Positions 33,872-50,329 of a stretch of 64,000 nt of DNA are shown in pieces. Source of the DNA: an uncultured Coriobacteriales bacterium (GTDB lineage Bacteria; Actinomycetota; Coriobacteriia; Coriobacteriales; UMGS124); contig CAKUFZ010000002.1 of the NCBI GenBank assembly GCA_934654475.1, positions 86 to 64,085 of the forward strand. Reading direction: 5' to 3'. Each line of letters begins with the position of its first letter. Position 1 is the stretch's first letter. The notes beneath the pieces are model-generated. The model worked only from the letters and a program-made list of their open reading frames with translations. It searched no databases and was not told where the DNA came from. Both the position numbers and the translations under genes were made by a program.

Positions 33872-34094
33872 ATTGATGCTCCGTTCTATCGTCAACGCCT
33901 GTTCCGTAACGTTCCAAAATCTGGCAGAACCCCTCGGTCTGTTCTCTTGCCTCCTCAATCAACTCAAGCATCGGCTTCACCTTGTTTTCTTGGAATTGCT
34001 CCGCATACCTATCCTGCCAAGCTGCTTCCGCTTTACCCCAAATGTTTCGGATGTCCCCCTCCAGGCCCAAAAGCTCTTCACCTACCAAAGCCAT
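33855..34094 (-). CDS. Small (79 aa) helical protein overlapping both neighbours
   Basis: The ATG at 34094 lies 10 nt upstream of the stop of the FtsK-like ATPase gene, and the gene end overlaps the next start by 17 nt. The sequence is LGLEGDIRNIWGKAEAAWQDRYAEQF.... Confidence 0.5.
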   Translation of the reverse strand: MALVGEELLGLEGDIRNIWGKAEAAWQDRYAEQFQENKVKPMLELIEEAREQTEGFCQILERYGTGVDDRTEHQYASYS

Positions 34095-37000
34095 TCCGAC
34101 CCATCCCTTTCGTCTTGACCGGTTGGTGAAAAGCTGCCCGGGAGTGCGGCAGATTCTTTGGAATCCGGCTCAGTCTCTAAGGGTTTTGCCACCTCGAGAG
34201 GTATGGTCTTGGCCACAGTCTCAACTACGTAAGGTCTGAAGAAAAACTCATGGCCGCTTGGGGTGTGATACACCATCTTGATTTTTGCCTCTTCGGGTTG
34301 GAGCGACGACGCGTTTGATTGCATGCCGATGCTCACCAGCTTCATTCGATCGGCATGCGTCGCAAAACGATGAGCAAAAAGTTCCGCCATATCCAATCCC
34401 CTTGCACCGAGAACTTTGTTGAGGTTTGGAACGGACGTAGAGAGCAAGCATATATGGACGTTGTTCAATGGCCCCCATTGAATCACACGGGCTATCAGCT
34501 CGCGTGCATCATCGGGCGAAGTCTTCGCTTCTTCGCTCTGACCTTTCTGGTGGTTTTCATATCGCACCATTGCCGCGCTTAAGGTGCTAACGCTGCTCGG
34601 CTGTTTTTTCTGCATTGACCTCTCAAACTCATACTGTGCCCTACTCATTTGCTGGCTCAGCTGCTCAAGACCCAAAACAACGATGAGCACGGGTGTTGAG
34701 GAGGCGAGATTACCCTCTTCAGCCCGACGGAAGAGATTGGCAATGGATGTTAAGTCGGTCATCTCTTCATAGTTGGGGAATACATCTCGAAGCGTCTGCC
34801 ATTTTGTTTGCGCAAAGCGCCAAGTCGGGTCGTTCTCAGGGGCAACGACAACGACACGATATCCAAGGCCCTGCTTCGAACAGGCTCCGATGATGGTCGT
34901 CTCCACCAAGTCGAAGGCAAGGTTCATCTCCGGATCAAGCACAAAGATGTTTTGTCCAATATTGCTGTTCAACGCGATTCGCAGGGTGGGATCAACAAAA
35001 CTCGACTTTGATCCTATAGGAACAAGACGAGAGCCCATGATATCAGTAGTCATTCGCTGACAATACTCGGTCCATGTAGGAGCGTCACGGCGAGTCGCAT
35101 CAAGATATTCAAATCTTTCATCCCAAGCTTTGCATGCATCGCCCAAACTTGCCCTGATCCTTTCGTTCGATGCGCACATCGCTTTGTCTTCCACGCATCT
35201 GGTGACACAGCGTATAGGCTTATGCCCGCCATGTTGGATGTAAGCATCGCCCTTCCCTAGAATCTCGAGGTCGGAAGAGTAAGTGGACGAAACCATCGCA
35301 CAAGGCTCTTGCCCGTTGGTGCCCCATGCCAAAAGCACGCGATTCGTCATGTTCGTCTGTACTGTCTTTTCGCCAAGCGCTTGAAGATTTGGGCCGTCTG
35401 TAAGACTCTGGTCGGCGATAAGGACATGCATGCCGTAAGCGCGGCATTCCTTAATCAGGTTCTGAAACTTGCGACTGTAGTTTGAGCTGTCATCTTTATT
35501 TAAGCGTGTGGCAGCCATAACGGCAGCCTGAGCATGAAACTCGTCAATTACCACCAAGAGGTACCGCATGTGCTCCAAGCCCAATTCGGGGTGCTTGGCA
35601 ACATAATAGTTGTATTCATTGATATCCCTGGCACTGGGGACGTTCTCCACCATGAGGGTCTGGCGATTTTTCATCTCGACATCATAAAGACGGTCGATGG
35701 CCACCTTTATGAAGTCCTCGGATGTATCGATTGCGACAAGTCCTATATGCGGGAAGCGCTGGTCAACATCCCTCAGACCCGCAAAATCGCTGCGCTTGTA
35801 ATCAATAATCCAGATTTCAAGGTCATCTGGAGAGTAGTGCGTGCAGGCAGCCTCGATGGCATTACGCAAGAAATACGTCTTACCGGACCCCGTCGTTCCC
35901 GTCACAATGCCATGTACATTCCCGCCCAGGTCAAAGCGCAACATGACGGCATTACCAAGCTCGTCGACAGCCACGGGCAGCTCTATGGCCTCTTCGATCT
36001 TGCTTACCTGCACATGAGCCAAATCAACAACTTCCGTCGGGTTGGCGGCATCACGCTTTTCCTGCGCCTTCTGCACGCTCAGCACAAGCTCGTCTGAAGT
36101 AAGGGCGGAATTGATGGGGTTGATGGGCTTGCAGCCACGGCCGGGGATATCGATGAGGTATCGTGCGCGTCCAGCTTGCGGATCCCAGCTCTCTGTGATG
36201 TTCGTCATGCTTTCGCGCAAAGCTCGCAGTCTTTCGTCAAACTTCTCGTCACCTCGCAGAGCGCTGCCGCACGAGACGAGCACCTGCACTCCGAGCCGCT
36301 TGCCGTCTCTGACGAACGATTCGATGAGGTCGAGGGTCCTAGTTCCAAAATGCTTGTTGGATAAGTCGTTTATCACAACAATCGTCTGCGGAATCGCCTT
36401 CACTGCATTGGCCCGCGCGTTGTATTTTCGCAGGCTTCCAAAAGACGCAATGGCAGGGCCAAGGTCTCCTGTGCGGTTCTCGAGAACGGTATTCATCCTT
36501 CCCGTATCTTGCTCAGTCGAGGCGACCTTAATGATGGTGTCCTCCCGGCGCTCGATACGGGATGACAGGTCGGCAAGCTTTCCCAAAGAGAGGCCGGCGT
36601 TTGTGGGGTCAAGCCAGTAAACCTCGAGGCCGCCCAAGGGCGTGCAACGGATGGCCGTGGACACAATGGCTCGCATCCAGGCGAGTGCCGCCTCTTTGTC
36701 GTTGTCTACCGTGAACCAGCATCCCTGGAGGTTGTCCCAATCAAACGAATAGGGTACGTAAAGGTCGACCCCAGCACCTTTTGCCTCGACCATGCCTATC
36801 GGGGTATACCGAGGAAACTCTGTGACTTGCCTGATTGCACCGAAGTCGGCGTTGCCCAGCACTTGCACGCGATTGGCAATCTCGGCACGACATTGATAAC
36901 CTATACGCTCGGACTCAGTATTTGATTCCAACCGCGCCCTAAGGTGTCGCCTGTCCTCCTCATACTTTGTCTCCAGGTTGCGAAGCTCCCTTGCAATGGC

Positions 37001-37675
37001 CTGAGATGCCGATGTGTCAATCGCTTGGGCATCCGCACGCCGCCGCGCGTCCCTCTCCGCCTCGGCATGCTTTGCGCTCCATTCGTTTTGCAGCACACGT
37101 TGGCGCTTCTCCGCATCGGCTTGCATCGAACGCTCATCTCGATCGATGCGTTTCTGCTCATCTTGCACCATAGCCTTCAGCAAAGAGCACGCCTCATCAC
37201 GCTGCATTGTCCCTTTGAGGTGGAAGAGGCGCTTGAGCCACGTCAAAAAAGATATGTCAGCCATTTGAGCCAGAAGGACTTCAAGCTCTGAATCGGAGGT
37301 GTTTCTTGCGTCTTGAATATGTTTCGGCCATATGGGGGTGTTCGCAAGGTCACCCGGGATGCGTGCAAGGACCCTGGAACAGCGGTCTCGACGATCTTGC
37401 ACGGCACGACGCTCACTCTCAATCTCTGTTGAGAGTACTTGGAGACGAGCGTTGTATTCCCTATCAATCTCGGCAACGCCCTCAACCTGAGGATGCGCCA
37501 GCCGAGCGGCAAGGCTCGCCTCGATGCACTCTGCCTCGCGCTTGCGTCTCATGCAGTCGCTGCGCCTCTCCTCGTATTCCCTTGTGAGGCAATCGAGCCT
37601 TAACTGTCCGTCGTCTGACGCCGTTGCAAAGCCATCGATGCGCGAGGCAATCATCTCGTAGAACTCATCGACCAT
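34082..37675 (-). CDS. Atypical FtsK/SpoIIIE-family ATPase: coiled-coil N-terminus, three P-loop-like modules with only the middle one intact, no TM segment
   Basis: 1197 aa. The middle module has Walker A GIVTGTTGSGKTYF, Walker B YLLVVIDEFH and an FtsK-type RAYGMHVLIADQS. The flanking modules keep beta-strand/Walker-B-like strings (TIVVINDLS; VLIVVLGLEQL) but have no GxxGxGK[ST]. The first roughly 300 aa are E/R/A-rich coiled coil. I saw no hydrophobic helix. Confidence 0.75.
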   Translation of the reverse strand: MVDEFYEMIASRIDGFATASDDGQLRLDCLTREYEERRSDCMRRKREAECIEASLAARLAHPQVEGVAEIDREYNARLQVLSTEIESERRAVQDRRDRCSRVLARIPGDLANTPIWPKHIQDARNTSDSELEVLLAQMADISFLTWLKRLFHLKGTMQRDEACSLLKAMVQDEQKRIDRDERSMQADAEKRQRVLQNEWSAKHAEAERDARRRADAQAIDTSASQAIARELRNLETKYEEDRRHLRARLESNTESERIGYQCRAEIANRVQVLGNADFGAIRQVTEFPRYTPIGMVEAKGAGVDLYVPYSFDWDNLQGCWFTVDNDKEAALAWMRAIVSTAIRCTPLGGLEVYWLDPTNAGLSLGKLADLSSRIERREDTIIKVASTEQDTGRMNTVLENRTGDLGPAIASFGSLRKYNARANAVKAIPQTIVVINDLSNKHFGTRTLDLIESFVRDGKRLGVQVLVSCGSALRGDEKFDERLRALRESMTNITESWDPQAGRARYLIDIPGRGCKPINPINSALTSDELVLSVQKAQEKRDAANPTEVVDLAHVQVSKIEEAIELPVAVDELGNAVMLRFDLGGNVHGIVTGTTGSGKTYFLRNAIEAACTHYSPDDLEIWIIDYKRSDFAGLRDVDQRFPHIGLVAIDTSEDFIKVAIDRLYDVEMKNRQTLMVENVPSARDINEYNYYVAKHPELGLEHMRYLLVVIDEFHAQAAVMAATRLNKDDSSNYSRKFQNLIKECRAYGMHVLIADQSLTDGPNLQALGEKTVQTNMTNRVLLAWGTNGQEPCAMVSSTYSSDLEILGKGDAYIQHGGHKPIRCVTRCVEDKAMCASNERIRASLGDACKAWDERFEYLDATRRDAPTWTEYCQRMTTDIMGSRLVPIGSKSSFVDPTLRIALNSNIGQNIFVLDPEMNLAFDLVETTIIGACSKQGLGYRVVVVAPENDPTWRFAQTKWQTLRDVFPNYEEMTDLTSIANLFRRAEEGNLASSTPVLIVVLGLEQLSQQMSRAQYEFERSMQKKQPSSVSTLSAAMVRYENHQKGQSEEAKTSPDDARELIARVIQWGPLNNVHICLLSTSVPNLNKVLGARGLDMAELFAHRFATHADRMKLVSIGMQSNASSLQPEEAKIKMVYHTPSGHEFFFRPYVVETVAKTIPLEVAKPLETEPDSKESAALPGSFSPTGQDERDGSEWLW

Positions 37676-37708: not shown

Positions 37709-38317
37709 TTAAAGCTCGAGTCCAAGCACGTCGAAGCCACCGTTTGCCAGAAAGACCAGGAGAAGCATTTTTGCGATCTTGGCAAGAACGGCACCCGCTA
37801 TGAATGCAAGCGGAGACTTGCTGAGCCTTCCGCAAACAAGGCCGATGGCATCGGACGCATTGCCTGAGATGAACGATCCGGCAAAGGCGCACGTGAAGAC
37901 GCCGAGACCCCCGCATCCTTCAAGTCGCGCAAGCCAACGCATGTCCGGGCGCACGATCCGCGTCGCTTTGCCGGCCCAATAGCTCGTCACTTCGCCCAGG
38001 CCCGCCCCCAGCCCCGCCGCAAGCGAAACGAAGACAGGGTCAAGAACCAACGACATTTGCACGGTGACAGCCCCGGAAGGCGACAACCCGAACACGCCGC
38101 TGTTCAAAACAAAGCAAGCGACTGCCGTAGCCACATAGCCCAGCGAGGCAAACTGCGCAATCTCATCGCGATAAACAAAGGCGAGAACGGAGGCCACGAC
38201 CATCAGGACAAGAGTGGCGATTCCAAGCAGCACTGGACGATGGCGCTCGATTCTCGTACCTTCATGCTGAATGTCACCATGTGAGTGATTGTTCTGGCCG
38301 GCGCACATCATCTCCAT
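37709..38317 (-). CDS. YqaA/VTT (DedA-related) family membrane protein
   Basis: 202 aa and multi-pass. The segment LAAGLGAGLGEVTSYWAGK resembles the G-x-x-x-G-x-x-x-Y-x-x-G[KR] signature of YqaA-like proteins. Confidence 0.45.
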   Translation of the reverse strand: MEMMCAGQNNHSHGDIQHEGTRIERHRPVLLGIATLVLMVVASVLAFVYRDEIAQFASLGYVATAVACFVLNSGVFGLSPSGAVTVQMSLVLDPVFVSLAAGLGAGLGEVTSYWAGKATRIVRPDMRWLARLEGCGGLGVFTCAFAGSFISGNASDAIGLVCGRLSKSPLAFIAGAVLAKIAKMLLLVFLANGGFDVLGLEL

Positions 38318-38952
38318 CCATGCTCCTGAGAGTAGATGACGAGCAGGTCTAGGTTGGCGCGCTCCACGTCGGTGAAGTTGGGCTCGGTCACGCCCTCGAT
38401 GGGTTGATACCAGGGTCGAGCGTCAAAATACGCGCGATACTTGCCGCCTGCGAAGGGATACCCATATCGTGCATACAGCTCGTTGATTGCCAGGGTTGTC
38501 GTGCGCTCGTCGAAACCCTCAATGTCGGCCCTGTCGAGATACACCCAGTTGGACGGTAGGATGTACCCTTCGGCCTGCGCCTGTGCAATCGCGTCACCAT
38601 TGGGCGTTGAGGTACTGACAATAGGAAGGGACGTATCTGCATTGGCATACTCGTCGGACACGTCTGAATACTGCGCGGTCTCATCCGAATAGGTCGGCTC
38701 TTCTTGAGTGCTTGAAACATCCGATTCGACCGACTCGCTCGAAACAGGTTCGTAACTGCCGTCTAAAAGGATGGAACCCAATACTTCGCTTGAAGCAAAC
38801 TGGTTGGACATGGGCGACAACAGAAACGCCAAAAACACCGCCCCGCCAAGAAGCCCGCCGAAAATCGCCAATCCCCCACTCGGAGTTTTGGGCACGTTGA
38901 AACTGTTCGCGTTGCCAGCCATAGTGGAGCCTCCATTGTTTGTGCGTGACAT
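38308..38952 (-). CDS. Membrane-anchored YARHG-domain protein
   Basis: 214 aa with one TM segment (LAIFGGLLGGAVFLAFLL) and an acidic S/E/T-rich linker. The C-terminal YARHG signature is YILPSNWVYLDRADIEGFDERTTTLAINELYARYGYPFAGGKYRAYFDARPWYQP. Confidence 0.7.
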   Translation of the reverse strand: MSRTNNGGSTMAGNANSFNVPKTPSGGLAIFGGLLGGAVFLAFLLSPMSNQFASSEVLGSILLDGSYEPVSSESVESDVSSTQEEPTYSDETAQYSDVSDEYANADTSLPIVSTSTPNGDAIAQAQAEGYILPSNWVYLDRADIEGFDERTTTLAINELYARYGYPFAGGKYRAYFDARPWYQPIEGVTEPNFTDVERANLDLLVIYSQEHGWR

Positions 38953-38963: not shown

Positions 38964-41900
38964 CTATGAATCAAGCAAGCTCACGATGACGACGATTCCC
39001 AGTACCAGCGCGAGAATGCCGGCTGCAATGGTAAGAATGCCCCCGACGATAAGGATGACGAATACGGCAGCAAGGCAAAAAACAGGTGGCAAAAGAACCA
39101 TGGCGAGCCAGAAGTGGGGCCCACACCATGATTTGCTGTTGGCATACCAGAGCCCGACAAGCCAAAGCAAAAAACCGATTACCATACCAGTTGCAAATCG
39201 GTTTGAATAGCTGGTGCTTGTCTCAATCCACTCCCAGACACCCAGTGCAATGAGCCCACCGGCAAGCATCATCGGCAAGATGGTGGACATACCCCACATG
39301 GCCCAATGGCCCGAATTATGCAATCCTTGACTCTCATGGAGATTCTTGTCAAGCAACGCCACAGTGGAACTGTACCCATAAGAGACGACAGGCAGAGAGG
39401 CATTTTGGTCGGCCAGACGCATATAGAATGGCGACGTTTTCTCTCCGTAGGCCCTGATATCCTCATTATATGTTTGACTGAGTTGTTTGAGATCCTTGTC
39501 CAACCCCCTGTATTTGCCGGAAAGGCGTTGCCTGCCAAGGTAATAAAAACTCGCATAGGCAAAGTATGTCACAGCTGACACGAACGTACCAAATGCAAGG
39601 ACATAATCGAAGCCCTCGGGCAAACCAAGCAAGACAAGGAACTCAAAGAGCGAGGGGGCCATAACCGTCCCGCATACGGCAAACGCCACCAAAAGCAAAA
39701 TGCTACCGAGCAGGTACCCCGCCTTGGACTCGCACTGCTCCCTCATGCGCATCTGGAGCTCCATGATGATCTTCTCAAAGTTCTTGTCCCGAGAATCGCC
39801 TTGCGAAGCCTCAACGAGACACACGCCATCCCATTCCGCCGTGCCAGTCATATCCCTCCTGGAGGCGGTGAAGATATCGCGGACGAAGCCACGGGGGACG
39901 GTCTCCCCATAGAATCGCGCACAGAAAAACCCGTCGTCCTCGCTCACGGTGACGTTCTTCTCCGAAGAAACGCCGTAATAGTGCCGCAGAGGAAGTTCTT
40001 CCAAATTGGCTTCGATTCTTTGTACGCATGTATGGGCCGTCTGCTCAAACCCGTCATGCGCCATTTGGGCCACGGATGAGCCGAGGCCCTTGGTTATGGT
40101 GTCGCAACTCCAGTGAAGCCTTGTGGGTGCGGAGGAACCTTCTGCCATCCTGAGATACATGTCAGCATGGCGGGCAGTCCAGACCCAGGGTCCAATGGGG
40201 CCATAATTGATGTAGAACTCCCGCACGACGTCCTTGCTCTCGACAAGCCCCTCAAAGAAGCACAGCGCCTCGGTGGCAAGTACGAGCAGTTCGTGTCCGC
40301 GCGTCAAATCGTCGCTTGGAGCAGAATCGTTAGGGTAGGCTTTGAGCATCCCGAGGAGGGAATCGGCGTCGGTGAACCTGTACGCCACGGACAGCATTGA
40401 CCTGTAAGCATCTTTAGACGCGATGGTTTGATAGAACCTGTACGGCGTGCTGGAGCAAAGCTCAAAGAGCTTGTTTGCATTCTGGCACATCGTTAGCGAA
40501 TCCGTGTAGTTGGCGCTAAAAGTATTCTTGAACAGTAGGCGCGCAAACGAGGCGTCACCGCCATCATCCAGCTGGGCGGCGACCTTCTCAATGCCCCGCA
40601 GCTTCTCGATTACATACCTTTTGCCATCCGAAAGCTGGTCTTCAGTTTGCCAAGGAGAGAGGATCGCCTCGACGCCTGAGCCTTGCTGTTCGGCCGCCCA
40701 AGAGAGCAACCCACTTGCGAGCAGGTCTTTTGCGAGCAGCTCTTTAGACACTTCAGGGTTGTCGATGTTTGCTATAAGGTTTGTGAAAGAAACGTCCTTG
40801 CCTTCCCAACAGAGCAGGTATCTGTTACCGGACAGGTACCAAATGGATTTTGCCAAACCCAAATTTGAGGACTCGCTGCTGTTACGATAAGTGTCCAATG
40901 CATCGGCGGCATCGATTTGCCCGTCGCCGACAAAACTTTGTGAAATATAACCTCGTGAAAACTGCCTGAGAGCGACGGACCAATTGTTCGACAAGGCCTC
41001 TGCAAGCTCTGCGAAGTTCGTATACGTCTTTCCCTCGAACTGATAAGACCATCCCGTTTCCCCATCGTCCGGGTCGACCCATGTAATGGATTCCGGCTTA
41101 TCAACCCAGCTCATAACGGCTTCGAATCCAAGGCGCTTCTTATGATCCCTATACGTCAGACCATATATGAGGCGCCCAAGATACTTGTCTTCGTCGCTGG
41201 TCGGCTGAAAAGGCACGTCACGAGAACCGCTCAGGGCAATACGCTGAAGTGCGAGTTGGTCGTTGGCCTCAATAAGACTTTGATAAGGATGTTTGCCATC
41301 GTTGTAGAGCGTCCAAATCGTATAGCCAAACGCATACCAATCGCTTTCCGGCTGAACTGGCACACCGGGAATGGAGTATCCCACTGTCGCACGCTGCGTT
41401 GTCGTATAGCCGAACTTCTGTCCCTCGGCGCCACCTTCGACAAAGGAAGAGATGTTGAAATCGCCCAGAACAACGCAACCGTCGTACACGAAAAGGTTTG
41501 ACGGTTTTACGTCACGGTGCACAATATTGCGCTCGTGCAAAAAATGCAGAGCGGTTGCCGCGTCTGAGATGACGCAACGCTTGAGATAGCCCTTCTCAAG
41601 GGGCTTTTCATCGAGTCTGCTACATATTGGCATGACTGCGACGTATGCCAGCTCCTCATGCCATCCTGGTCTATCGCTTGTTTGGACGTTGATGGCCTTG
41701 CTCTCAAACGCATAGATCGGCATGAGGTGTGTGGACTGGCACCCGCCGTTTGACGGGTCGCCGGTTATGTCGAGAAGCTCCTTGATGACGCGTTGGTAAT
41801 CTGAGTTATGCCTGGCGTCTCGATCTCTAAGGGAGATTTTAGCCGCATACTCATTGCCTTCGTTGTCTCTTGCGCCAAAGACGCGAGCATAGCCGCCCGA

Positions 41901-42098
41901 ACCGATTGATGTATCGAAATCAATCGTATAGCTCATCTGTGTTGAAGCATTACTCACAACAACGGTTTGATTGGGGTCGGCCTCAAAACAAAAGCCCTCG
42001 TCTGCCAAGGCGGCCGTCTGGTTTGACTGCGCCGCAGTTGCTGAATAGCGCATCGCCGAGGTGCCAGACTGAACCATTGGGACGGTCTCAGATGCCAT
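38964..42098 (-). CDS. Giant Ser/Thr protein kinase with a large middle region and a polytopic C-terminal membrane domain
   Basis: The start is taken at the ATG at 42098, 8 nt after aaggag and 1 nt after the PP2C stop (the ORF track starts at 42140). The Hanks kinase motifs are IGSGGYARVFGA, YAAKI, HRDVKPSN, DFN (in place of DFG) and QPESDWYAFG. The C-terminal roughly 300 aa hold about 7-8 hydrophobic helices. Confidence 0.85.
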   Translation of the reverse strand: MASETVPMVQSGTSAMRYSATAAQSNQTAALADEGFCFEADPNQTVVVSNASTQMSYTIDFDTSIGSGGYARVFGARDNEGNEYAAKISLRDRDARHNSDYQRVIKELLDITGDPSNGGCQSTHLMPIYAFESKAINVQTSDRPGWHEELAYVAVMPICSRLDEKPLEKGYLKRCVISDAATALHFLHERNIVHRDVKPSNLFVYDGCVVLGDFNISSFVEGGAEGQKFGYTTTQRATVGYSIPGVPVQPESDWYAFGYTIWTLYNDGKHPYQSLIEANDQLALQRIALSGSRDVPFQPTSDEDKYLGRLIYGLTYRDHKKRLGFEAVMSWVDKPESITWVDPDDGETGWSYQFEGKTYTNFAELAEALSNNWSVALRQFSRGYISQSFVGDGQIDAADALDTYRNSSESSNLGLAKSIWYLSGNRYLLCWEGKDVSFTNLIANIDNPEVSKELLAKDLLASGLLSWAAEQQGSGVEAILSPWQTEDQLSDGKRYVIEKLRGIEKVAAQLDDGGDASFARLLFKNTFSANYTDSLTMCQNANKLFELCSSTPYRFYQTIASKDAYRSMLSVAYRFTDADSLLGMLKAYPNDSAPSDDLTRGHELLVLATEALCFFEGLVESKDVVREFYINYGPIGPWVWTARHADMYLRMAEGSSAPTRLHWSCDTITKGLGSSVAQMAHDGFEQTAHTCVQRIEANLEELPLRHYYGVSSEKNVTVSEDDGFFCARFYGETVPRGFVRDIFTASRRDMTGTAEWDGVCLVEASQGDSRDKNFEKIIMELQMRMREQCESKAGYLLGSILLLVAFAVCGTVMAPSLFEFLVLLGLPEGFDYVLAFGTFVSAVTYFAYASFYYLGRQRLSGKYRGLDKDLKQLSQTYNEDIRAYGEKTSPFYMRLADQNASLPVVSYGYSSTVALLDKNLHESQGLHNSGHWAMWGMSTILPMMLAGGLIALGVWEWIETSTSYSNRFATGMVIGFLLWLVGLWYANSKSWCGPHFWLAMVLLPPVFCLAAVFVILIVGGILTIAAGILALVLGIVVIVSLLDS

Positions 42099-42099
42099 C

Positions 42100-42900
42100 C
42101 TATGACTCCTTTTCATCGATTGGGGTCGAAATCTCGACAAGCATCACACTTATGTTGTCATCTGAACCGCCAACCAAAGCAGCATTAAACAGACTTACCG
42201 CCTTAGTCTGCAGGTCGACGTCGGCACCTTTGAGCATCTCTTCAATCAGCTGATCAGGCACGCCCTCGGTCAGACCGTCTGAGCAGAGGAGAAAGATGTC
42301 GTTTTCAAACACAGGCCATGCCTTTGAAATATCGACGATGTCCCACCCCGGGCCAAGTCCGAGTGCGCGCAGGATAACATGAGCTTGATTGGTTTGCGCC
42401 CACTCAATCTGCTCTTGAGGCGCATGGATGCTTTCGAGCTGTTGCACAACTGAATGGTCGCCCGTCTGCCGCGCAAGGAAACCGTTACGCATCCGATACA
42501 CGCGTGAATCCCCGGCGTGGAATGTAACGAATTCTCCCTTGGCAATCGCAATTCCAGCCGTGGTCGTTGCCATGGATGTCCCACACCTCCATGACGCGGA
42601 TGTCGCACTCATCTCGCGACTCGTCTGAGAGAGCACCGCGCAAGCCGCCTCGGCCAGACCCCGCGCATCACACCCGGCGTCGACTTCAAACCCCGCGAGA
42701 GCCTGAGCAGCGAGAGAAGATGCCTCGGCACCATGCCCTCCCGCGCTCACCCCGTCGAACACGGCCAGAAGGGTGGGTTCCTCGACCTCGATGCAGCACG
42801 ACCCTGAGGCAAGAACTCCCCCGCCTATGAAAAGCCTGTCTTCGTTCGTTGACTTCACCGCGCCTTTGTCGGTAACGGCGGCGACCTGTATCACAGCCAT
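42100..42900 (-). CDS. PP2C-family Ser/Thr protein phosphatase
   Basis: 266 aa with TDKGAVKSTNEDR, LAVFDGVSAGGHGAEAS, LCSDGLTEGV and GGSDDNISVMLVE. Confidence 0.88.
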   Translation of the reverse strand: MAVIQVAAVTDKGAVKSTNEDRLFIGGGVLASGSCCIEVEEPTLLAVFDGVSAGGHGAEASSLAAQALAGFEVDAGCDARGLAEAACAVLSQTSREMSATSASWRCGTSMATTTAGIAIAKGEFVTFHAGDSRVYRMRNGFLARQTGDHSVVQQLESIHAPQEQIEWAQTNQAHVILRALGLGPGWDIVDISKAWPVFENDIFLLCSDGLTEGVPDQLIEEMLKGADVDLQTKAVSLFNAALVGGSDDNISVMLVEISTPIDEKES

Positions 42901-44873
42901 GCGGAAGCTCCCGTCTCCGTGGAATACACAATATGCCCTCCCTGAGCAGAGGCGTAAATCGTCGCGCCCTGCGGCACTCGCATATCAAATAGGTACTCGG
43001 CAAGCGTGTTGAGGTATTCGGACTCGATGTAGTTGGCGATGCCTCGACCGCCCTTCTCTTTGACATCGGTGGAAAGCGAGGCCTGAACGATTTGGTCGAA
43101 GCAGGTCTGGTCAACCTCGACATGTACACCCTGCTGCTTGAATACGGCATGGTTGACCTGGTCGACTTTTTGGCGGGCAATGAGGGCAGCAGAGGCGTCG
43201 TCGATGTAGTCGAACACAACGACGTTGTTGCCGATGCGACCCAGAAACTCCGGCTTAAACGTCGCCTTCATCGCGGCCATTACTTTGTCGCGCACCGCAT
43301 CGTATGGCTCACCGGGACCGATAAGCGTCTGGTGGTCCACCACATGGCGACCCGACGCGTCATATACCTCGCGTGAGAAACCGATATTGCTCGTAAAGAA
43401 AATGAGCGTCTCGCTGAAATAGACCGTTGTGCCCTGCCCGTCGGTCATACGCCCGTCTTCCAATATTTGCAGGAACTTGTCCATGATGCTGGGAGAAGCC
43501 TTCTCCACCTCATCGAACAGCACGACTGAGAAGGGGTTTGCACGCACGGCGTTGGTCAGTTGACCGCCTTGCGAGTAGCCCACATACCCCGGCGGTGCAC
43601 CGAACAGCTTTTGGTCGGAATTGTCCCCCTGATACTCAGACATGTCGAAACGCAGACAGCTCCGCTCGTCGCCAAAAAGCATCTCAGTGACTGCTTTCAC
43701 TATCTCGGTCTTGCCGGTACCTGTTGGACCGCTGAGGAAGACGACGCCTTTAGGCTTGCCGCCGCCAGAATGCGTGGCCCCCGACAAACCCAAGACGGAT
43801 CGCTTGAGAACCGACACGACGGCATCGACGGCCTGGTCTTGCCCTTTGACTCGTCTACGAATGACATCTCCGGGGTCATGCTCGAGCTTCTCGAGCATCG
43901 TAGCCCACTTGTTTTCCTTGAGACCGTATTTATACACGTCAACCAGTGCAGCGAGATCGGAGGAACCCTGGGTATCGCGGCCGTGCATGCGCCTAAGCTC
44001 GTCAAGCTCCCGCAAGGTCATGGCGTCGGTCATGTCGACGAAACGCTCCGTTTCCGACTTCTCCCCTACGACGAAACCCTCGGTTGGCAGGCTGGGCGGA
44101 ATCATCGTCTGCACATAGAGCTCGCGCGTCGCCCTGTCAGGGTTGGGCACTGTGACAACACGCATGTTGGGATTGCCGTTTACAAACCAATCAGGCAGGT
44201 CATTGCGGCGGCTTGCAACCAGAATGAGGGTATTGCGATCGCTGGACGACCCATCGGGCGAACATACGCGCAAGGCATCGCTTGCCGCAACAAACAGGTT
44301 AGTGAAGAACGCCGTTTCGTCTGGGTCGAGATGCGAAGGCGAGGTGAGAACGCGCGACGCCATGTCGACGACAACGGCAACAGGTTTAGCGACCGGGTGG
44401 CCCGGCTTGTTTCCTCCCAGACGAGGGCCGCCTCCCCCGTCGAGCTGCAACGGGCTTGCAAGGAGCGCACGTATGAGGCGTGAGTCTTGAACAAGGTCGC
44501 TCACCTGGCTGGATTGCGTCTGACGGGCATGCCCAAACGAGTTGACCCTGTCGGATTCCGCCTGCATATCAGCCGCCGCACGGCCTGCTGCCGCAAGATA
44601 GCGCTCGACATCAGATTCCTGGAACATATTGGTGAAACGACGCAACGGGTCGTAATACACGAGCTGATACTCGCCCGATGCGGCATCCTCCGAAAAGACC
44701 GCATGGAGCAGCTCGTTGAGTGTCAAGAAGCCTGCCTGTGCCACGTCGTCAATCGCGTCGCCACCGTCCCAAACAGGATACAGGTCGTTGACGTTGCCCT
44801 CAAAGAGAAAGAGGCTCTTGATGCCCTTGAAGTTGCGCAGCTCGCGCTGCCACTGTTGCCTCTGAATGCTCAC
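42891..44873 (-). CDS. AAA+ ATPase with a ClpA/ClpB D2-like module and a degenerate N-terminal module
   Basis: 660 aa. The C-terminal half carries VKGQDQAV..FLSGPTGTGKTE (Walker A), VVLFDEVEKA (Walker B), PPGYVGY and FTSN. The N-terminal roughly 300 aa lack a P-loop. The GTG start overlaps the upstream stop (GTGA) and is preceded by gggagg. Confidence 0.75.
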   Translation of the reverse strand: MSIQRQQWQRELRNFKGIKSLFLFEGNVNDLYPVWDGGDAIDDVAQAGFLTLNELLHAVFSEDAASGEYQLVYYDPLRRFTNMFQESDVERYLAAAGRAAADMQAESDRVNSFGHARQTQSSQVSDLVQDSRLIRALLASPLQLDGGGGPRLGGNKPGHPVAKPVAVVVDMASRVLTSPSHLDPDETAFFTNLFVAASDALRVCSPDGSSSDRNTLILVASRRNDLPDWFVNGNPNMRVVTVPNPDRATRELYVQTMIPPSLPTEGFVVGEKSETERFVDMTDAMTLRELDELRRMHGRDTQGSSDLAALVDVYKYGLKENKWATMLEKLEHDPGDVIRRRVKGQDQAVDAVVSVLKRSVLGLSGATHSGGGKPKGVVFLSGPTGTGKTEIVKAVTEMLFGDERSCLRFDMSEYQGDNSDQKLFGAPPGYVGYSQGGQLTNAVRANPFSVVLFDEVEKASPSIMDKFLQILEDGRMTDGQGTTVYFSETLIFFTSNIGFSREVYDASGRHVVDHQTLIGPGEPYDAVRDKVMAAMKATFKPEFLGRIGNNVVVFDYIDDASAALIARQKVDQVNHAVFKQQGVHVEVDQTCFDQIVQASLSTDVKEKGGRGIANYIESEYLNTLAEYLFDMRVPQGATIYASAQGGHIVYSTETGASAWL

Positions 44874-45472
44874 ACTGCCTCCCTCGCATGCATGTCCGAC
44901 GGGCGGTCGTGGATTCCGACCGAGATTGCACGGTTCTCAAACACGAAGTTTTGGACCCATCGCCCCTGTCTCATGTACTCCGCATACTTCCGCCGCATCT
45001 TCTCGTTGAGGAAGTTGACGCGTTGGTTATCTGAACCGCGCAAGGCAAGCCCAGCCACGTTGCGCGCGGCGATATAGGGCCCGTCTATAAGAACGTCAAC
45101 GCATGTTCGCAGGCGTAGCCAATTCGCATGGGACAGACAGCGTTGAGCTTCTTCGAGCGTGTAGCCCGTATACAAAAGGACATCGTCATAGACGCTGCGG
45201 ACGGCCTCCAGGCAATCGAGGAGCTCGTCGGGTTGCTCAAGGGGGTCTCCGCCGGTGAGCGTAAGCTCGTGGCAACCATAGGACTCGCCGACATCCAGCA
45301 GGTAGCGAGCGAGGCCGCCCGGTGGCATTTCCTGCGCCTCGGTAGATGTCCACAGCTCGGGATTTGCGCACTCCGCACAACGCTTGGAACAGCCCGCCGT
45401 CCATATCACGGCGCGCCTCCCCGGCCCCAACGTCTCGACAGGGTAGAGAATCCTATCCACGCGCATCGTCAA
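44870..45472 (-). CDS. NrdG/PflA-like radical-SAM activating-enzyme homolog (orphan)
   Basis: 200 aa with ETLGPGRRAVIWTAGCSKRCAECANPELW (CX3CX2C directly before N-P-E-x-W) and LTLTGGDPLEQ, as in anaerobic RNR or glycyl-radical activases. No NrdD or glycyl-radical enzyme is in the window. Confidence 0.65.
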   Translation of the reverse strand: MTMRVDRILYPVETLGPGRRAVIWTAGCSKRCAECANPELWTSTEAQEMPPGGLARYLLDVGESYGCHELTLTGGDPLEQPDELLDCLEAVRSVYDDVLLYTGYTLEEAQRCLSHANWLRLRTCVDVLIDGPYIAARNVAGLALRGSDNQRVNFLNEKMRRKYAEYMRQGRWVQNFVFENRAISVGIHDRPSDMHAREAV

Positions 45473-46490
45473 ACTCTCCTTTGCGCCGCACGCCCCACAC
45501 GGGGCGCACGCGGGCTATGCGCCTCTTGTCCATAATGTCCACGCAACATGGGCAGGAAGCGAGCCGCGAGGACTCGCCCTCCACGAGAAAGCTGTGACCG
45601 CAGCCACCAGGTGGGCAATCGATGAACCAGCCTTCCACCAAATCCGACGCATCGGATTCAGAACCGCCGGAACAGGCCTCGACAGAAGACGGGTCCACAT
45701 TTGAACAAGCGGTTAGACCTTCATCAAAAGACGAGCCTGCACACGTAGCCAGTGCCGGAGCGTCGGACGCTTGTTCCCCATCGCCAGGTACAACCCGCTT
45801 TGAGGAAGAAGCATTGGCGGCCACACCCAAAGGCTGGATATGAATTCGAAACGAAATGTCGGCCATGCGGAGTGTATCGCCATCATGGATGGGAGAATCG
45901 AAGTCGCGACCAAGGTTGATGCTGCCGTTTGGTGTAAACAAGACGGAGGGGTTGCTGCCGGCATGCATGGCAGACCAGCCGGCGCCATAGGGCTTGAACA
46001 GCACATGGGTTCGGCTGATGTGCGCACAATCGGCAAGAACGTCAGACCCGAAGTCGCCTTCACGCCCGACAAAGCCGCCATGAGGACCGATTTCGATAAC
46101 AGCCCCTGTACTCAGCATTTCGAGAAAGAGCCTGGTCGGAGCATCGCTAGCACGCCCTTGGATCGAAGGCGAAGGCATCGGGCTGGAGGGCGAGAGCACT
46201 TGCCCAGCGCAAGGCGAGGGACGGGATGCCGGCTGAGGCGCCTCATGGGCTCCAGATGACGGGCTTTGGCAGGAAGCCAATGGTGGGCAATCCCAAACAG
46301 GTTCCAATGCCTCGGGCTTATATGGTTGAGACTGAAAACGAGGCTGGGATTGGCACTGGGAAACGGAACCCGGTCCAGATGGTTGCCCCGTGCCAGACGG
46401 GCTTTCTACCTGACGTTCGTTGGAACATACCAGGCAGATGTCTGCCCCATCCGGGTTTTCAGTACCGCAAAAAATGCACGTCCACGCCAT
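45453..46490 (-). CDS. FHA-domain protein flanked by N- and C-terminal zinc-ribbon-like motifs
   Basis: 345 aa with N-terminal WTCIFCGTENPDGADICLVCSNE and a P/S/Q-rich linker. The FHA core is FVGREGDFGSDVL..ISRTHVLF..GSNPSVLF. The C-terminus carries CPPGGCGHSF...CPCCVDIMD. Confidence 0.7.
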   Translation of the reverse strand: MAWTCIFCGTENPDGADICLVCSNERQVESPSGTGQPSGPGSVSQCQSQPRFQSQPYKPEALEPVWDCPPLASCQSPSSGAHEAPQPASRPSPCAGQVLSPSSPMPSPSIQGRASDAPTRLFLEMLSTGAVIEIGPHGGFVGREGDFGSDVLADCAHISRTHVLFKPYGAGWSAMHAGSNPSVLFTPNGSINLGRDFDSPIHDGDTLRMADISFRIHIQPLGVAANASSSKRVVPGDGEQASDAPALATCAGSSFDEGLTACSNVDPSSVEACSGGSESDASDLVEGWFIDCPPGGCGHSFLVEGESSRLASCPCCVDIMDKRRIARVRPVWGVRRKGEFDDARG

Positions 46491-46493: not shown

Positions 46494-47915
46494 TTACTCC
46501 GCCTGCCTCTCGACAAGGTTTTCGTCTTCGTAAAAACCAGTCCTGCGACGGCCCCGTGCTGCCTGTGACGGAACAGTCGACTGACCGCAAGTTTGGAAAG
46601 ACACCGAGTTGGACTCGGAAGCGGGCTTATCAGCCGTCTTATTGAGAACAACTCCGTATTCGGCCAGCTCCTGTGACAGCTGCCCAAAGAGGGTGCAGAA
46701 CTGTTGCTGTTGCATCACAAGCTGACGTCTCTCCCACTCGCCTTGCGCAGCGACTCGTTCGATGACCATACCGTCGGGTCCCTCTGCCAAGCCTGGCCCA
46801 TACGAGGCGGTTTCCATCATCACGGCTCCTTGCTGTGGCGAGACGGCAACGTGAATCGCCGTGCCCTGGCTCTCATCGAGATATAGGGAGTGAGGAAATG
46901 CCCCCTGCGAATTAGCAAGGGAGGCAAGCTGAACCGAGCGTTTGACGTTATAGCCATGACGTGCCATCACCTCGTCGATTGCATGGGCGATATAGGCGTT
47001 TCGTGCCGCGCAATCCGCCTCTTTATACAAGGCGTCGCGAAGCTGAGAAAGCATATCGGCGTCTGTCATTTGCCAAAGAGGAGGCAGGTCCGTCGATTGC
47101 ATGTCGAGGGCGTCGCACCGAGCCTTCAAAGCACGGCACTCGTTGTATAGGTCCTCAACCAGCGCGACCTCTTTACTGAAATGGCTGATGAGGCTTTCCC
47201 CGATATTCAGCCTGCCTCGCATCTCTAGGAGGCGTTCCTCGGGATGGGCCGCATAAGCGTCAGCCGTCGCCTTGAGGTCGTCGACATATTTCATGAGAGC
47301 GGCAAGGTGACGCTCCGAAAGCGCGCCGCTCAAAGCAAGTTGTTGAAACGCCGCCCTCTGCTTGGATGCCCGATCGAGCAAGTCATTCAGTGGCTGCACA
47401 TCACCGGCCGATTCTTTGAGGTCCTGAAGACGCCGAAGGACGAGGTCGACGCTGCTCAGAAGTGGTGTGCATGGCTTAGTTTGCTTGACATCGAGGTTTT
47501 CGACGAACTCCATGGCCCTTTTTGTTCGGTCCTCCTGGCGCAAGTAAGCGCCCTCCGCATCGCGCATTCCAAAGGAGATGTCATCCACGCGCCGCCGAAA
47601 GTCGTCAAGCTCCCCGTTCAGCTTCTTTTCGAGCCAATCGTTGTACTCCACAGCCTCCATGACCTCATCGGGATACTTCTCTGATGCAAGACGCGCGAAC
47701 CGCGCCTCAAGTTGACTTGTCATAGAAACGCATCTTTGAAGTTCATTTTCTCCCCAAGCACCCATTGCCCCAGCACGGCGCATCACACCGTCCGCAATGT
47801 CATGAGCCTTGCGGCATGCGCCTTTGACAATCTTGGTATTGCGGTCACGTTGGGCCTGCAGCTGTGCCAGCCTGTATGACTCAATCTTCATCAACCCAGA
47901 TTTAGGACCGCTCAT
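46494..47915 (-). CDS. Hypothetical protein, first gene of the operon (helical N-terminal half, unknown family)
   Basis: 473-aa ORF that ends 3 nt before the next start. About 380 nt of non-coding DNA and a terminator lie upstream. I recognised no motif. Confidence 0.6.
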   Translation of the reverse strand: MSGPKSGLMKIESYRLAQLQAQRDRNTKIVKGACRKAHDIADGVMRRAGAMGAWGENELQRCVSMTSQLEARFARLASEKYPDEVMEAVEYNDWLEKKLNGELDDFRRRVDDISFGMRDAEGAYLRQEDRTKRAMEFVENLDVKQTKPCTPLLSSVDLVLRRLQDLKESAGDVQPLNDLLDRASKQRAAFQQLALSGALSERHLAALMKYVDDLKATADAYAAHPEERLLEMRGRLNIGESLISHFSKEVALVEDLYNECRALKARCDALDMQSTDLPPLWQMTDADMLSQLRDALYKEADCAARNAYIAHAIDEVMARHGYNVKRSVQLASLANSQGAFPHSLYLDESQGTAIHVAVSPQQGAVMMETASYGPGLAEGPDGMVIERVAAQGEWERRQLVMQQQQFCTLFGQLSQELAEYGVVLNKTADKPASESNSVSFQTCGQSTVPSQAARGRRRTGFYEDENLVERQAE

Positions 47916-48408: not shown

Positions 48409-48624
48409 TTAGTAAAACTTCAGATACTCCTGAATCTTTCTTGCAGCGGAGGCTTCTCCCTTACTCAGGGCGACAGAGATTGCGTCTTCAAGTGCCCGAC
48501 GGGCCACTGTGTCGCCTCTGGAATCATCACCGCATTCATCCGCCTTCAGGATGTAGTGCGAAACAAGATTCCATTCATCAGAGGTCAGCTTTCGTTCAAG
48601 CTCACTAGCAAGGCGCGAGTACAT
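48409..48624 (-). CDS. Small (71 aa) helical protein of unknown function, last gene of the peptide operon
   Basis: The ATG at 48624 is preceded by ggtgga, 6 nt upstream. The sequence is MYSRLASELERKLTSDEWNLVSHYILKADECGDD.... Confidence 0.5.
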   Translation of the reverse strand: MYSRLASELERKLTSDEWNLVSHYILKADECGDDSRGDTVARRALEDAISVALSKGEASAARKIQEYLKFY

Positions 48625-48659
48625 GTTTATCCACCGACCCTCTTCAATCTTGTCTGAGC

Positions 48660-48842
48660 TTATTTACCGACGCAATAGAGCATGCACTTGCTACCGCACG
48701 GCGTTCCGCCACCGGGAACAGAATAAGGCTGACAAATGGTGCTGCACGAGGCGAAACCACTCATTCCAAGCTGGCTAACCATTCCGTAGAAATGCCCAGC
48801 AGAGCCACACGTGCCGTAGGAAGCTTCACGAACGATTTCCAT
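48660..48842 (-). CDS. Candidate RiPP precursor peptide with six cysteines
   Basis: 60 aa from the ATG at 48842 (the ORF track uses the GTG at 48851); aggtg lies 6 nt upstream of the ATG. The sequence is MEIVREASYGTCGSAGHFYGMVSQLGMSGFASCSTICQPYSVPGGGTPCGSKCMLYCVGK. It starts 51 nt downstream of the SPASM maturase stop. Confidence 0.6.
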   Translation of the reverse strand: MEIVREASYGTCGSAGHFYGMVSQLGMSGFASCSTICQPYSVPGGGTPCGSKCMLYCVGK

Positions 48843-48893
48843 AATTTTCACCTTTCGAGCATGCCTTCGAATAAGACTTCTTTGCCGACCCGC

Positions 48894-50180
48894 TTATTCA
48901 CTCCTTTCATTGTGTCGCAGGTTGTCCATATATGAAACGGCATCAAAAACCGCATCATAGGTATAGCGAATGTAAGGACAACGACCATATCCAAAGCCCA
49001 TCGCTAGACCCGCATAGCATCCAGCTTGGCACGACGGAAGATACGAGCACTCCTCACATTCTTGTGGAAGGGCCGGATTTGCCCAGAAATCCATTGCGTC
49101 ATTGAACTCAACGCCTGTTTCCAGTGTCCCCACCAGGTCTCGTTTATCTCCAAGAAAATGATCGCATTTCGAAACGAAACCATCGGGGCCAATACAAAAG
49201 TTATTCAATCCTCTGGCACAGCATGAGGCGTTGTTAAAGTTTAAAGGCAAATCATTGACGCTTGTAATTAGGCCCGAATCAATCATGGCATGGAAAATAG
49301 ATTTGTATACCTCAGTCAATTCCTCTTTTTCAAAACAGGACTTGTCTCCAAGCGTACTGTACAGCGGGGCCACATGTGCCGAGAAAAGCTGCGAGTTGGC
49401 AAATCGTTTGCCGAGCATATGGATGAGTCGAAGAACAGAGGAGTGATTGTTTTTATCCGCGTTTATACGCACAGAAACCGCGATGCCTGCGTCAAGAAGG
49501 CAGTCTATACTGTCAAAAATAGAAGAGAGTGTGTAATCTCCACTCACATAGTTTTTTCGCTTCCCGTACTCACTCTCATCGCCGTCGAGAGAAATCTGTG
49601 CATTGCCCACATGGCATCTTTTGAGTAAATGCGCGATATCATCTGTTACAAGCGAGCCATTACTTATTATATCCGCCGTATAGCCAACTTCTCGTTGTTC
49701 CGCATTCTCAATTAGAGCCTCGGAGATTCGTTCGATAAAATCTGGTCGAAGCAGCGGTTCGCCGCCAAACCAAGTCACGTGTATATGCTTTGCGATTCCC
49801 ATATAACTGGAAATAAACTCGACGAGCTTCGGTTCCAAACTTTCAGGAAACGATTGGGACACAAAATCTTGCTCATAACAATAGGGGCACCGCGCATTGC
49901 AGGCAGTGGTGGGCAAAATCTGAAATGCAGCATTGTCCGTAGAGTAGTTATTCACATACCTAAGCGCTTTGACCTTGCCGAGTTCATTTGTTTCAACCGG
50001 AACAAGAAAGCCATTTTGAACAAAAGCCCCCGCTTCCTCTTGGGTCCACTGTCCTTTCTCAAAGCGTTCATAGCAAGCCGAGTCCAACTTGACAACAGCA
50101 GAAGACACCAGATTGAACATCAGGACTTGGTTTTCATTAATCCGACCAACATGGTTATAAAACGAGCGCTTGTAGTCCAT
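48894..50180 (-). CDS. Radical-SAM/SPASM-domain peptide maturase
   Basis: The radical-SAM cluster motif is TTACNARCPYCYEQ. The C-terminal SPASM-type cysteine pattern is CCARG..FCIGPDGFVSKCDH..CEECSYLPSCQAGCYAG..GRCPY. The start is taken at the ATG at 50180, preceded by gggaga; the ORF track uses the TTG at 50207. Confidence 0.8.
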   Translation of the reverse strand: MDYKRSFYNHVGRINENQVLMFNLVSSAVVKLDSACYERFEKGQWTQEEAGAFVQNGFLVPVETNELGKVKALRYVNNYSTDNAAFQILPTTACNARCPYCYEQDFVSQSFPESLEPKLVEFISSYMGIAKHIHVTWFGGEPLLRPDFIERISEALIENAEQREVGYTADIISNGSLVTDDIAHLLKRCHVGNAQISLDGDESEYGKRKNYVSGDYTLSSIFDSIDCLLDAGIAVSVRINADKNNHSSVLRLIHMLGKRFANSQLFSAHVAPLYSTLGDKSCFEKEELTEVYKSIFHAMIDSGLITSVNDLPLNFNNASCCARGLNNFCIGPDGFVSKCDHFLGDKRDLVGTLETGVEFNDAMDFWANPALPQECEECSYLPSCQAGCYAGLAMGFGYGRCPYIRYTYDAVFDAVSYMDNLRHNERSE

Positions 50181-50329
50181 TCTCTCTCCCGAAAACCATT
50201 CGGACAATTTTTCAAATATAGATTAGGCATTGTCAAACCCTTGCAACACCTCGCAACCGAAATGTCGCGTTTATGTTCCAAGTCGTTGGACATTGAAACT
50301 CGCGCACAATATGGCAATCAGGGACCTCA

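Follow-up and report, generated by a model that had tools for sequence, protein, structure and literature searches.

A candidate phospho-threonine switch: a membrane-tethered Hanks kinase in a conserved, undescribed gene cassette of an uncultured Coriobacteriales bacterium

Reversible threonine phosphorylation read by FHA domains gates type VI secretion, and a like role has lately been suggested for several type VII variants; the route by which the phospho-signal would reach the machine is, to our knowledge, not known for any type VII variant. The closest published parallel to the locus described here is the group of type VII secretion systems (T7SS) designated T7SSc-j, in which the membrane kinases TscD, TsdD, TseD and TsjD have intact active sites and are accompanied by PPM phosphatases (TsxF) and FHA proteins (TsxJ) (Garrett, Higginson and Palmer 2024, PMC11217815). 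The combination of a membrane kinase, a PP2C phosphatase and an FHA protein beside a type-VII-like cassette is therefore already known. The authors of that work themselves draw an analogy to type VI secretion, report little similarity among the C-terminal regions of the TsxD kinases and record T7SSd in Coriobacteriia (Olsenella) (PMC11217815); beyond their paper, the literature on type VII secretion in Coriobacteriia genera yielded nothing specific. In this work, we analyse a 64,000-nucleotide stretch of contig CAKUFZ010000002.1 from an uncultured Coriobacteriales bacterium (hereafter the window, to which all unprefixed coordinates refer), focusing on a minus-strand operon that encodes a 1044-residue Hanks-type kinase with a multi-pass membrane C-terminus. 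This kinase belongs first to a cassette of FHA, radical-SAM, AAA+ and PP2C genes, and a type-VII-like cassette is its frequent but dispensable neighbour. The set of kinase, phosphatase, FHA, unfoldase and radical-SAM genes is conserved but undescribed, and what is new here is this radical-SAM/unfoldase cassette with a new domain, a separable membrane module of 2+4 transmembrane (TM) helices and an amplified candidate FHA motif.

We read the kinase as an active, membrane-tethered enzyme that would form a reversible phospho-threonine switch at the hub of the cassette, an explanation to which, taken as a whole, we assign a probability of roughly 0.55. The kinase would autophosphorylate the T-x-x-M motifs of its own N-terminal tail (T5 and T13), the zinc-ribbon FHA protein of the operon would dock on these phospho-threonines, and docking would in turn assemble or activate the ClpB-like AAA+ unfoldase at the membrane. 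In the present gut actinobacterium, an FtsK-like ATPase devoid of TM helices may also be acted on, leading to export of WXG-like proteins and a nuclease-like toxin. The co-translated PP2C would reset the switch, and the six-helix module would tether the complex to the membrane, with input possibly coming from a YARHG protein as a split extracellular sensor. Such a switch would functionally resemble PpkA/PppA/Fha1/ClpV of type VI secretion as well as TsxD/TsxF/TsxJ of T7SSc-j.

The complete kinase gene (38964..42098; 1044 codons plus stop), delimited from the open reading frame (ORF) list, the junction with the preceding gene and the N-termini of homologues, encodes a Hanks-type Ser/Thr kinase domain at residues 56-335 (41094..41933), supported by Pfam, motifs, alignment and Foldseek. 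Pfam Pkinase (PF00069) covers residues 62-329 (E 7e-20, 71.9 bits vs a cutoff of 31.7), and the motifs GSGGYARVFG (from residue 66), AAK (85-87, with K87), HRDVKPSN (at 194) and DFN (at 213) bear out an earlier note on this DNA, which had called the catalytic motifs intact except for DFN in place of DFG. A 10-sequence alignment spanning 26-61% identity shows no variation at G66-x-G68-G69, K87, H194-R195-D196, K198, N201 and D213, all of which the window kinase has. Furthermore, a Foldseek search with the full-length AlphaFold2 (AF2) model recovered protein kinases only (target-normalised TM-score <=0.80), and the PDB sequence matches of the kinase are protein kinases throughout. Identity to relatives falls from 39-51% in the kinase domain to 25-32% in the middle domain and 10-27% in the membrane module. 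Because the catalytic residues are invariant down to ~26% identity and the kinase domain is the best kept part of the protein, this is probably an active enzyme, with a conservation pattern unlike that of a pseudokinase scaffold. The DFN variant is confined to the clade of the window, all other family members having DFG or DYG, and the host genome has further, more canonical Hanks kinases.

Directly upstream lies a gene for a 266-residue, Stp1/IreP-like PP2C/PPM Ser/Thr phosphatase (42100..42900). Its product matches the NCBIfam Stp1/IreP model NF033484 over its full length (E 5.5e-35, under the curated cutoff) and Pfam PP2C_2 above the cutoff of that model (E 1.4e-7), and the metal-binding motifs NED, DGxxG, GDSR, SDG and DDN are all present by eye, in agreement with the identity first proposed. 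The PP2C stop codon (TAG, 42102-42100) is separated by the single base 42099 from the kinase ATG (42098-42096), and an aaggag ribosome-binding site (42106..42111) lies within the last codons of the PP2C gene, 7 nt from that ATG; the sequence thus agrees with the earlier description of a kinase start 1 nt past the PP2C stop. We take this ATG as the real start because all homologues begin MA-x-E-T in register with it; a longer ORF with a TTG start (42140, 1058 aa) is ruled out, as the homologues align with the ATG. Spacing between the two genes varies among relatives (overlaps of 11 and 8 nt, a 0-nt gap and gaps of 27-30 nt), with adjacency kept. The tight junction supports co-expression of kinase and PP2C, as had been proposed, in an operon that also encodes the FHA protein. 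An adjacent, co-transcribed PP2C-kinase pair with a Stp1/IreP-like phosphatase is also seen with PknB, Stk1 and PrkC. PASTA-type kinases of this sort are bitopic or otherwise membrane-bound and act through FHA proteins in Actinomycetota. Assignment of the present kinase to that group is rejected: the model NF033483 scores 37.1 bits vs a cutoff of 450 and matches the kinase core only, and neither PASTA repeats nor an ectodomain are found.

Preceding the kinase domain is a disordered N-terminal tail (residues 1-55, 41934..42098), for which the predicted local distance difference test (pLDDT) is <50 over residues 1-36. It bears two T-x-x-M motifs, E-T5-V-P-M8 (42075-42086) and G-T13-S-A-M16 (42051-42062), both predicted sites of autophosphorylation and FHA docking. 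When residues 2-25 of 90 family representatives were compared with shuffled sequences, T-x-x-M was found in 34 (shuffled mean 7.5, maximum 14) and T-x-x-[ML] in 52 (mean 18.8, maximum 29), and S-x-x-M in none (mean 5, maximum 12). The tail motifs are therefore specific for threonine, taking the form T-x-x-M/L/V/D across the family. FHA domains bind phospho-threonine and not phospho-serine, with selectivity at the +3 position, and actinobacterial Hanks kinases favour an acidic residue before the threonine and a large hydrophobic residue at +3. Since the motifs are Thr-only and their +3 pattern matches the selectivity of FHA domains, we infer that they may act as autophosphorylation sites recruiting the zinc-ribbon FHA protein of the operon. 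The motif is multiplied in other lineages. For example, a 1166-residue orthologue from genus g19 (L025:8691-12191, genome G113) carries ten tandem ETVTV repeats with a period of ~14 aa before its kinase domain, and the genomes G329, G380 and G435 likewise carry an ETVTV-repeat orthologue; moreover, ET[VIL][VI]D repeats are present in the tails of other subfamilies. The g19 protein, from a lineage of gut bacteria, falls into a 90%-identity cluster of 807 members. The family offers a testable candidate docking motif, E-T-[VI]-x-[MLV/D], of which this lineage has ten copies.

Between the kinase domain and the membrane, residues 336-770 (39789..41093) form a conserved, cytoplasmic, all-alpha middle domain of ~435 aa, delimited by AF2 and profile searches. 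AF2 models it as compact (pLDDT 80-95), and its signatures include W-x-G-x-DVS, LSW, YGPxxPWxW and FYGExVPRGFVR. The ~430 unassigned residues that had been remarked on after the kinase domain are thus real, forming a conserved domain rather than a linker. In none of 12 family members does the non-kinase part (336-1044) match Pfam; a PDB sequence profile search with it yielded low-complexity helical noise only, and Foldseek with the model of residues 338-1044 found nothing in PDB (best E 0.32) or BFVD (best E 0.46). This is a new domain without a known relative in the Pfam, PDB and Foldseek searches, and among 138 representative matches it always lies C-terminal to a kinase domain. A conserved domain of this size with a confident model and no known relative is of interest in its own right.

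The membrane module (residues 771-1044, 38967..39788) was delimited by hydropathy, charge distribution and AF2 helices. It begins with an amphipathic pre-TM helix, followed by TM1-TM2, a cytoplasmic helical hairpin and TM3-TM6. Hydropathy gives segments at 793-826, 833-851, 934-958, 968-986 and 992-1044, the last of which fits two helices, and in combination with AF2 places TM1 at ~793-823, TM2 at ~828-851, TM3 at 934-958, TM4 at 966-987 and TM5-TM6 within 992-1044. The hairpin between TM2 and TM3 (855-933, ~80 aa) is rich in lysine and arginine. Hydropathy and charge, with which the AF2 secondary structure is concordant, predict both termini inside and outside loops of <=12 residues, hence no ectodomain; all non-membrane parts precede TM1 or fall in the positively charged 855-933 loop. 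Together, these features indicate six TM helices in a 2+4 arrangement, a pattern that recurs in ~40 family members. The ~7-8 hydrophobic helices counted earlier were an over-count. Two other statements of the earlier note on this region hold: a multi-pass C-terminus is unusual among Hanks kinases, and no other membrane component of the operon is as large as the kinase, with ~4-5 TM helices in the VTT/DedA-like protein, one in the YARHG protein and none in the FtsK-like ATPase. No known transporter family was recovered either, Foldseek of residues 338-1044 against PDB returning nothing, a result that is weak for the membrane part.

The module also occurs outside the kinase. In locus L012, a gene after a soluble kinase (L012:7926-8828) encodes a 300-aa protein with the layout of the window module: a pre-TM helix, two TM helices, a ~75-aa loop, four TM helices and a C-terminal ...NS. 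BLASTP of the window module against this protein gave no match, and a profile comparison gave a weak, collinear one (probability 57%, E 1e-4); the two are probably equivalent. Because L012 encodes a protein of like layout as its own gene beside a soluble kinase, the module appears to be a separable unit, fused to the kinase or encoded beside it, and it would have been repeatedly fused or split in evolution.

Upstream of PP2C, the cassette is completed by four genes. The first (46494..47915) encodes a 473-residue coiled-coil protein that has no Pfam match and is recognised by synteny. The second (45453..46490) encodes a 345-residue protein of zinc-ribbon/FHA/zinc-ribbon layout, assigned by homology to a 215-aa protein of L012 and by its phospho-threonine residues; Pfam alone makes no FHA call in it, but it is homologous (E 5e-14) to the L012 protein, which bears Pfam FHA and Zn_ribbon, and it keeps the GR, SxxH and NG phospho-threonine-binding residues. 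We predict that it reads the phospho-threonine motifs of the kinase. The third gene (44870..45472) encodes a 200-residue NrdG-like radical-SAM activase (Fer4_12, E 2.8e-28; TIGR02491, E 5.7e-26, below cutoff) and the fourth (42891..44873) a 660-residue ClpB/ClpV-D2-like AAA+ ATPase (AAA_2, E 6.6e-50; ClpB_D2-small), of which the ClpB and ClpV1 models cover the D2 part only, the N-terminal region of ~335 aa being specific to the family. The order of coiled-coil protein (~470 aa), zinc-ribbon FHA protein, NrdG-like radical-SAM enzyme (~200 aa), ClpB-D2-like AAA+ ATPase (~650 aa), PP2C and kinase is kept in the window, in L001, L003, L007, L010, L012, L013 and L016 and in the genome of Arabiibacter massiliensis (G094); L014 keeps it without a called PP2C gene. 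The kinase is thus always found with the first four genes and usually with PP2C, and its primary place in a radical-SAM/unfoldase cassette changes which experiments make sense. At the usual radical-SAM/AAA+ place of L016 there is an 859-aa ORF (L016:4377-6956), which may be a fusion or have a mis-called start.

Downstream of the kinase, the window encodes a single-pass YARHG membrane protein of 214 residues (38308..38952; YARHG, E 1.2e-9; TM 25-49) and a VTT/DedA-like polytopic membrane protein of 202 residues (37709..38317; VTT_dom, E 2.3e-7, below cutoff; TM segments), the latter at the same position in L003, L006, L007 and L010. Passages of PMC3355149 describe the YARHG domain as extracellular and often fused to kinases and propose that it binds peptidoglycan. 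Since the present kinase lacks an ectodomain and YARHG domains are extracellular and kinase-associated elsewhere, the YARHG protein is a plausible candidate for an in-trans sensor.

Next follows an FtsK/SpoIIIE-family ATPase of 1197 residues with a coiled-coil head (34082..37675), identified by family models and Walker motifs. It has no TM helix and a single set of Walker motifs (Walker A at 593, Walker B at 707), and its best family models, EccCa, EssC and EccCb, score 59-74 bits vs cutoffs of 347-778. The L012 locus has an ATPase of DUF87/HerA type (831 aa) rather than FtsK/SpoIIIE, in addition to its soluble kinase of 689 aa. Downstream of the FtsK-like ATPase, the window encodes three small helical proteins, a nuclease-like toxin candidate of 536 aa with weak matches to EAD9 and WHH nucleases, and a Sel1-repeat protein. 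The small proteins match WXG100 (PF06013) weakly (E 0.0031, 18.2 bits vs a cutoff of 27.3) and have no conserved W-x-G motif, and their profile aligns end to end with S. aureus EsxA, a weak match at E 0.13 only. In L012, the gene after the HerA-like ATPase (L012:12063-13019) encodes a HETMH (HExxH-like) motif, possibly marking a metalloprotease-type effector.

These neighbours raise the question of whether the kinase-fold protein is mainly structural, a scaffold or channel subunit in the manner of EssB, EccD or EsaA that docks the FtsK-like ATPase in a non-canonical T7SS, as the earlier note had suggested for the polytopic domain. An ATPase without a TM helix needs a membrane partner, its best family-level matches are EccCa, EssC and EccCb, and it is the only non-chromosomal FtsK-family gene of the genome; in the window, L003, L006, L007, L010, L013 and A. 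massiliensis, it or its orthologue comes after a kinase with TM helices, and genes for small WXG-like proteins and a toxin/Sel1 pair are found downstream. There is also precedent for a kinase fold at the type VII membrane, both in EssB (passages of PMC3694306 and PMC9600267) and in TsxD (PMC11217815), and this part of the suggestion has become stronger given TscD, TsdD, TseD and TsjD with TsxF and TsxJ. However, an orthologue of the ATPase is absent genome-wide from eight of the nine other kinase-bearing Coriobacteriia, only A. massiliensis having one, and it is also missing downstream of the kinase in L009 and L014 and from the g19 cassette. This makes the type-VII-like cassette dispensable and argues against the membrane module as a channel dedicated to type VII export. 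Moreover, the ATPase, with one P-loop and no TM helix, is unlike every described EssC, EccC or TsxC (PMC11217815); the catalytic residues of the kinase are under purifying selection and strictly kept, unlike those of a pseudokinase, whereas the membrane module is the least conserved region (10-27%); and Foldseek shows no likeness to EccD, EssB, EsaA or any membrane protein, although this is weak evidence given pLDDT 50-60 in the membrane part. We consider a mainly structural role unlikely, and the scaffold proposal does not hold up well.

The two specific assignments within that proposal can be rejected individually. EssB/YukC of T7SSb resembles the present kinase in having a kinase-fold cytoplasmic domain tethered to the membrane and in sharing its locus with an FtsK-family ATPase. 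EssB, a pseudokinase, crosses the membrane once, has its C-terminal domain outside the cell and binds the FHA domains of EssC without phosphorylation, whereas the present kinase has invariant catalytic residues and six TM helices, lacks an ectodomain and is accompanied by FHA on a separate zinc-ribbon protein; no EssB chain is among the best 50 Foldseek matches. EccD has ~11 TM helices and a ubiquitin-like N-terminus, in contrast to six TM helices and an N-terminal kinase here, and no EccD appears in the Foldseek search of 338-1044 (weak evidence).

Likeness to T7SSc-j goes further. In both, the kinase domain is N-terminal and cytoplasmic, keeps its active site intact and is anchored in the membrane, and a PPM/PP2C phosphatase and a separate FHA protein lie beside an FtsK-family ATPase, WXG-like proteins (here of weak WXG100 similarity) and LXG-type toxins. 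The differences, which set the kinase apart from the TsxD kinases by published descriptions rather than by sequence comparison, concern several components. TsxD kinases are described with one (or 'at least one') TM helix, after which a helical or TPR region is predicted for the envelope, whereas here a cytoplasmic 435-aa domain precedes six TM helices without an ectodomain. TsxC is membrane-bound with several NTPase domains, whereas here the ATPase has no TM helix and one P-loop. The ubiquitin-like TsxB of T7SSc-j has no counterpart seen here, and the radical-SAM, ClpB-like, YARHG and VTT genes are in none of the described T7SS subtypes. Of the components that go with TsxD, neither a membrane-bound multi-NTPase ATPase nor an envelope-located C-terminal region nor obligate co-occurrence with the ATPase was found.

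A membrane Hanks kinase, PP2C, an FHA adaptor and a ClpB-family AAA+ protein also occur together in the Thr-phosphorylation pathway of type VI secretion, and the type VI ClpV1 model TIGR03345 matches the AAA+ ATPase of the window (E 3.6e-66), in its D2 part only. The likeness lies in a reversible phospho-threonine switch that would gate a secretion or toxin-delivery machine and is a functional analogy only, not membership: the host is Gram-positive, the operon proteins scanned included no T6SS structural component, the AAA+ protein combines a single ATPase ring domain with a novel N-terminal region, and a radical-SAM enzyme is added. PpkA, furthermore, spans the membrane once and bears a vWA domain in the periplasm, in contrast to six TM helices and no ectodomain here.

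Several points weigh against the kinase as an active switch at the hub of the cassette. In the clade of the window, the DFG glycine is replaced by asparagine, and the 10-sequence alignment shows no invariant alpha-C glutamate; neither residue is strictly needed for kinase activity, but catalysis may be reduced or atypical. The 90 representatives behind the tail counts are kin, so that the shuffle test overstates their significance, and we infer FHA docking on the tail from motif statistics only. The secretion link comes from gene adjacency, with weak similarity of the small proteins to WXG100 (E 0.0031) and EsxA (E 0.13), and the model of the membrane module is of low confidence (pLDDT 50-60). 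Finally, this reading gives no account of what the radical-SAM enzyme and the middle domain do.

A broader interpretation would treat the six-gene set as a self-contained, undescribed, membrane-associated machine of Gram-positive gut bacteria; taken jointly, its parts make for a tentative and rather doubtful reading. Here the tail motif array, ranging from one to at least ten copies, would be a tunable, multivalent landing pad for FHA proteins, the middle domain and 2+4 module would form the output as a gated pore or a docking ring for the unfoldase, and the radical-SAM enzyme would modify a protein substrate presented by the unfoldase. Type-VII-like export would then be one among several outputs plugged into the machine.

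To gauge the extent of the kinase family, an exhaustive HMMER profile search with the non-kinase region as query was run against 1.84 billion cluster representatives. It returned ~138 family representatives, of which ~40 combine kinase, middle domain and 2+4 TM module (~1000 aa) and ~60 are soluble (~700 aa), stopping precisely where the middle domain stops. A single named member was found, WP_172623423.1 of A. massiliensis (Coriobacteriia, Eggerthellaceae), annotated in RefSeq as "protein kinase family protein"; with a named species and a complete genome at hand, genetics and biochemistry should be feasible. Within the class, a sensitive profile search finds the kinase in 10 of 401 genomes, representing 4 of 125 genera, and it is present in one of 61 close-relative genomes. 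Other searches were less productive: a word-index homology search returned three close relatives only and its profile version nothing further, the degenerate DNA pattern FYGxxVPRGF[VA]R recovered two metagenome contigs only, including L016 with the same operon, and pattern-based scans of species-genome contigs found no relatives, though the profile search finds the family in 10 of 401 genomes, so negative pattern scans for this family are not to be taken as absence. In L011, a second kinase-domain protein of 955 aa (L011:5681-8548) directly follows the family kinase.

The distribution is thus patchy. The host genome measures ~2 Mb with a G+C content of ~64%, and the whole operon lies in a ~24-kb stretch (28000-52000) of lower G+C (0.48-0.59 vs 0.62-0.66 in the flanks); no tRNA gene was found at its borders, the sole tRNA of the window being at 9951-10027. 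The patchy distribution and the low G+C would suit a cassette that serves as an anti-phage or abortive-infection-type conflict system, in which the kinase senses infection or envelope damage, either the six-helix module, the AAA+ protein or the radical-SAM protein acts as effector, and the type-VII-like genes are mere neighbours within an island of defence or antagonism genes. The best PADLOC matches point the same way, with MADS mad6 (1.7e-23) for the kinase and mad8 (8.6e-18) for the FtsK-like ATPase, PD-T4-6 kinases as further matches and DolB and PDC-M37B for the AAA+ ATPase, as do the weak EAD9 and WHH nuclease matches of the downstream toxin and the occurrence of the cassette alone, without the export ATPase, in several lineages. 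However, the model matches are domain-level and far under their cutoffs, and no relatives of the kinase family were found in plasmid, phage or IMG/VR collections. Moreover, a reversible kinase/PP2C/FHA switch paired with an unfoldase fits regulated assembly better than one-shot suicide, and a defensive role seems to us quite improbable. Assignment to MAD6 of the MADS system is rejected, since NF047741 scores 52.6 bits vs a cutoff of 460, the PADLOC mad6 and mad8 matches are domain-level, and neither methyltransferase nor OLD-type nuclease partners were found among the operon proteins scanned; the match to the PD-T4-6 defence kinase is likewise domain-level only, and that assignment is rejected too.

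The flanks of the operon bring in a further possibility. Radical-SAM maturases with short peptides lie beside it in the window (48409-50207), L007 (18387-19881) and L013 (1062-2634, with PqqD), and in the window, L001 and A. massiliensis its flanks include LytTR regulators along with sensor genes, AgrC-like or other. The kinase could accordingly take part in a circuit of peptide pheromones or ribosomally synthesized and post-translationally modified peptides (RiPPs), in which radical-SAM-modified peptides control the system together with AgrC-like/LytTR proteins or are exported, and the membrane module is a peptide receptor or exporter. We regard this as very improbable: the side and type of the peptide modules vary between loci, the modules are absent from L003, L010, L012 and L014, the membrane module has outside loops of a few residues only, and no similarity to known peptide exporters or receptors was seen. 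As observations in their own right, RiPP-like modules are present in three divergent loci, on different sides and of different types (SPASM-like vs PqqD plus radical SAM), and LytTR regulators with sensors are located at 51393-52271 and 25959-27838 in the window, L001:123-2352 and L024:7925-10524 (A. massiliensis). The flanking LytTR/AgrC-like genes suggest quorum- or peptide-controlled transcription of the operon.

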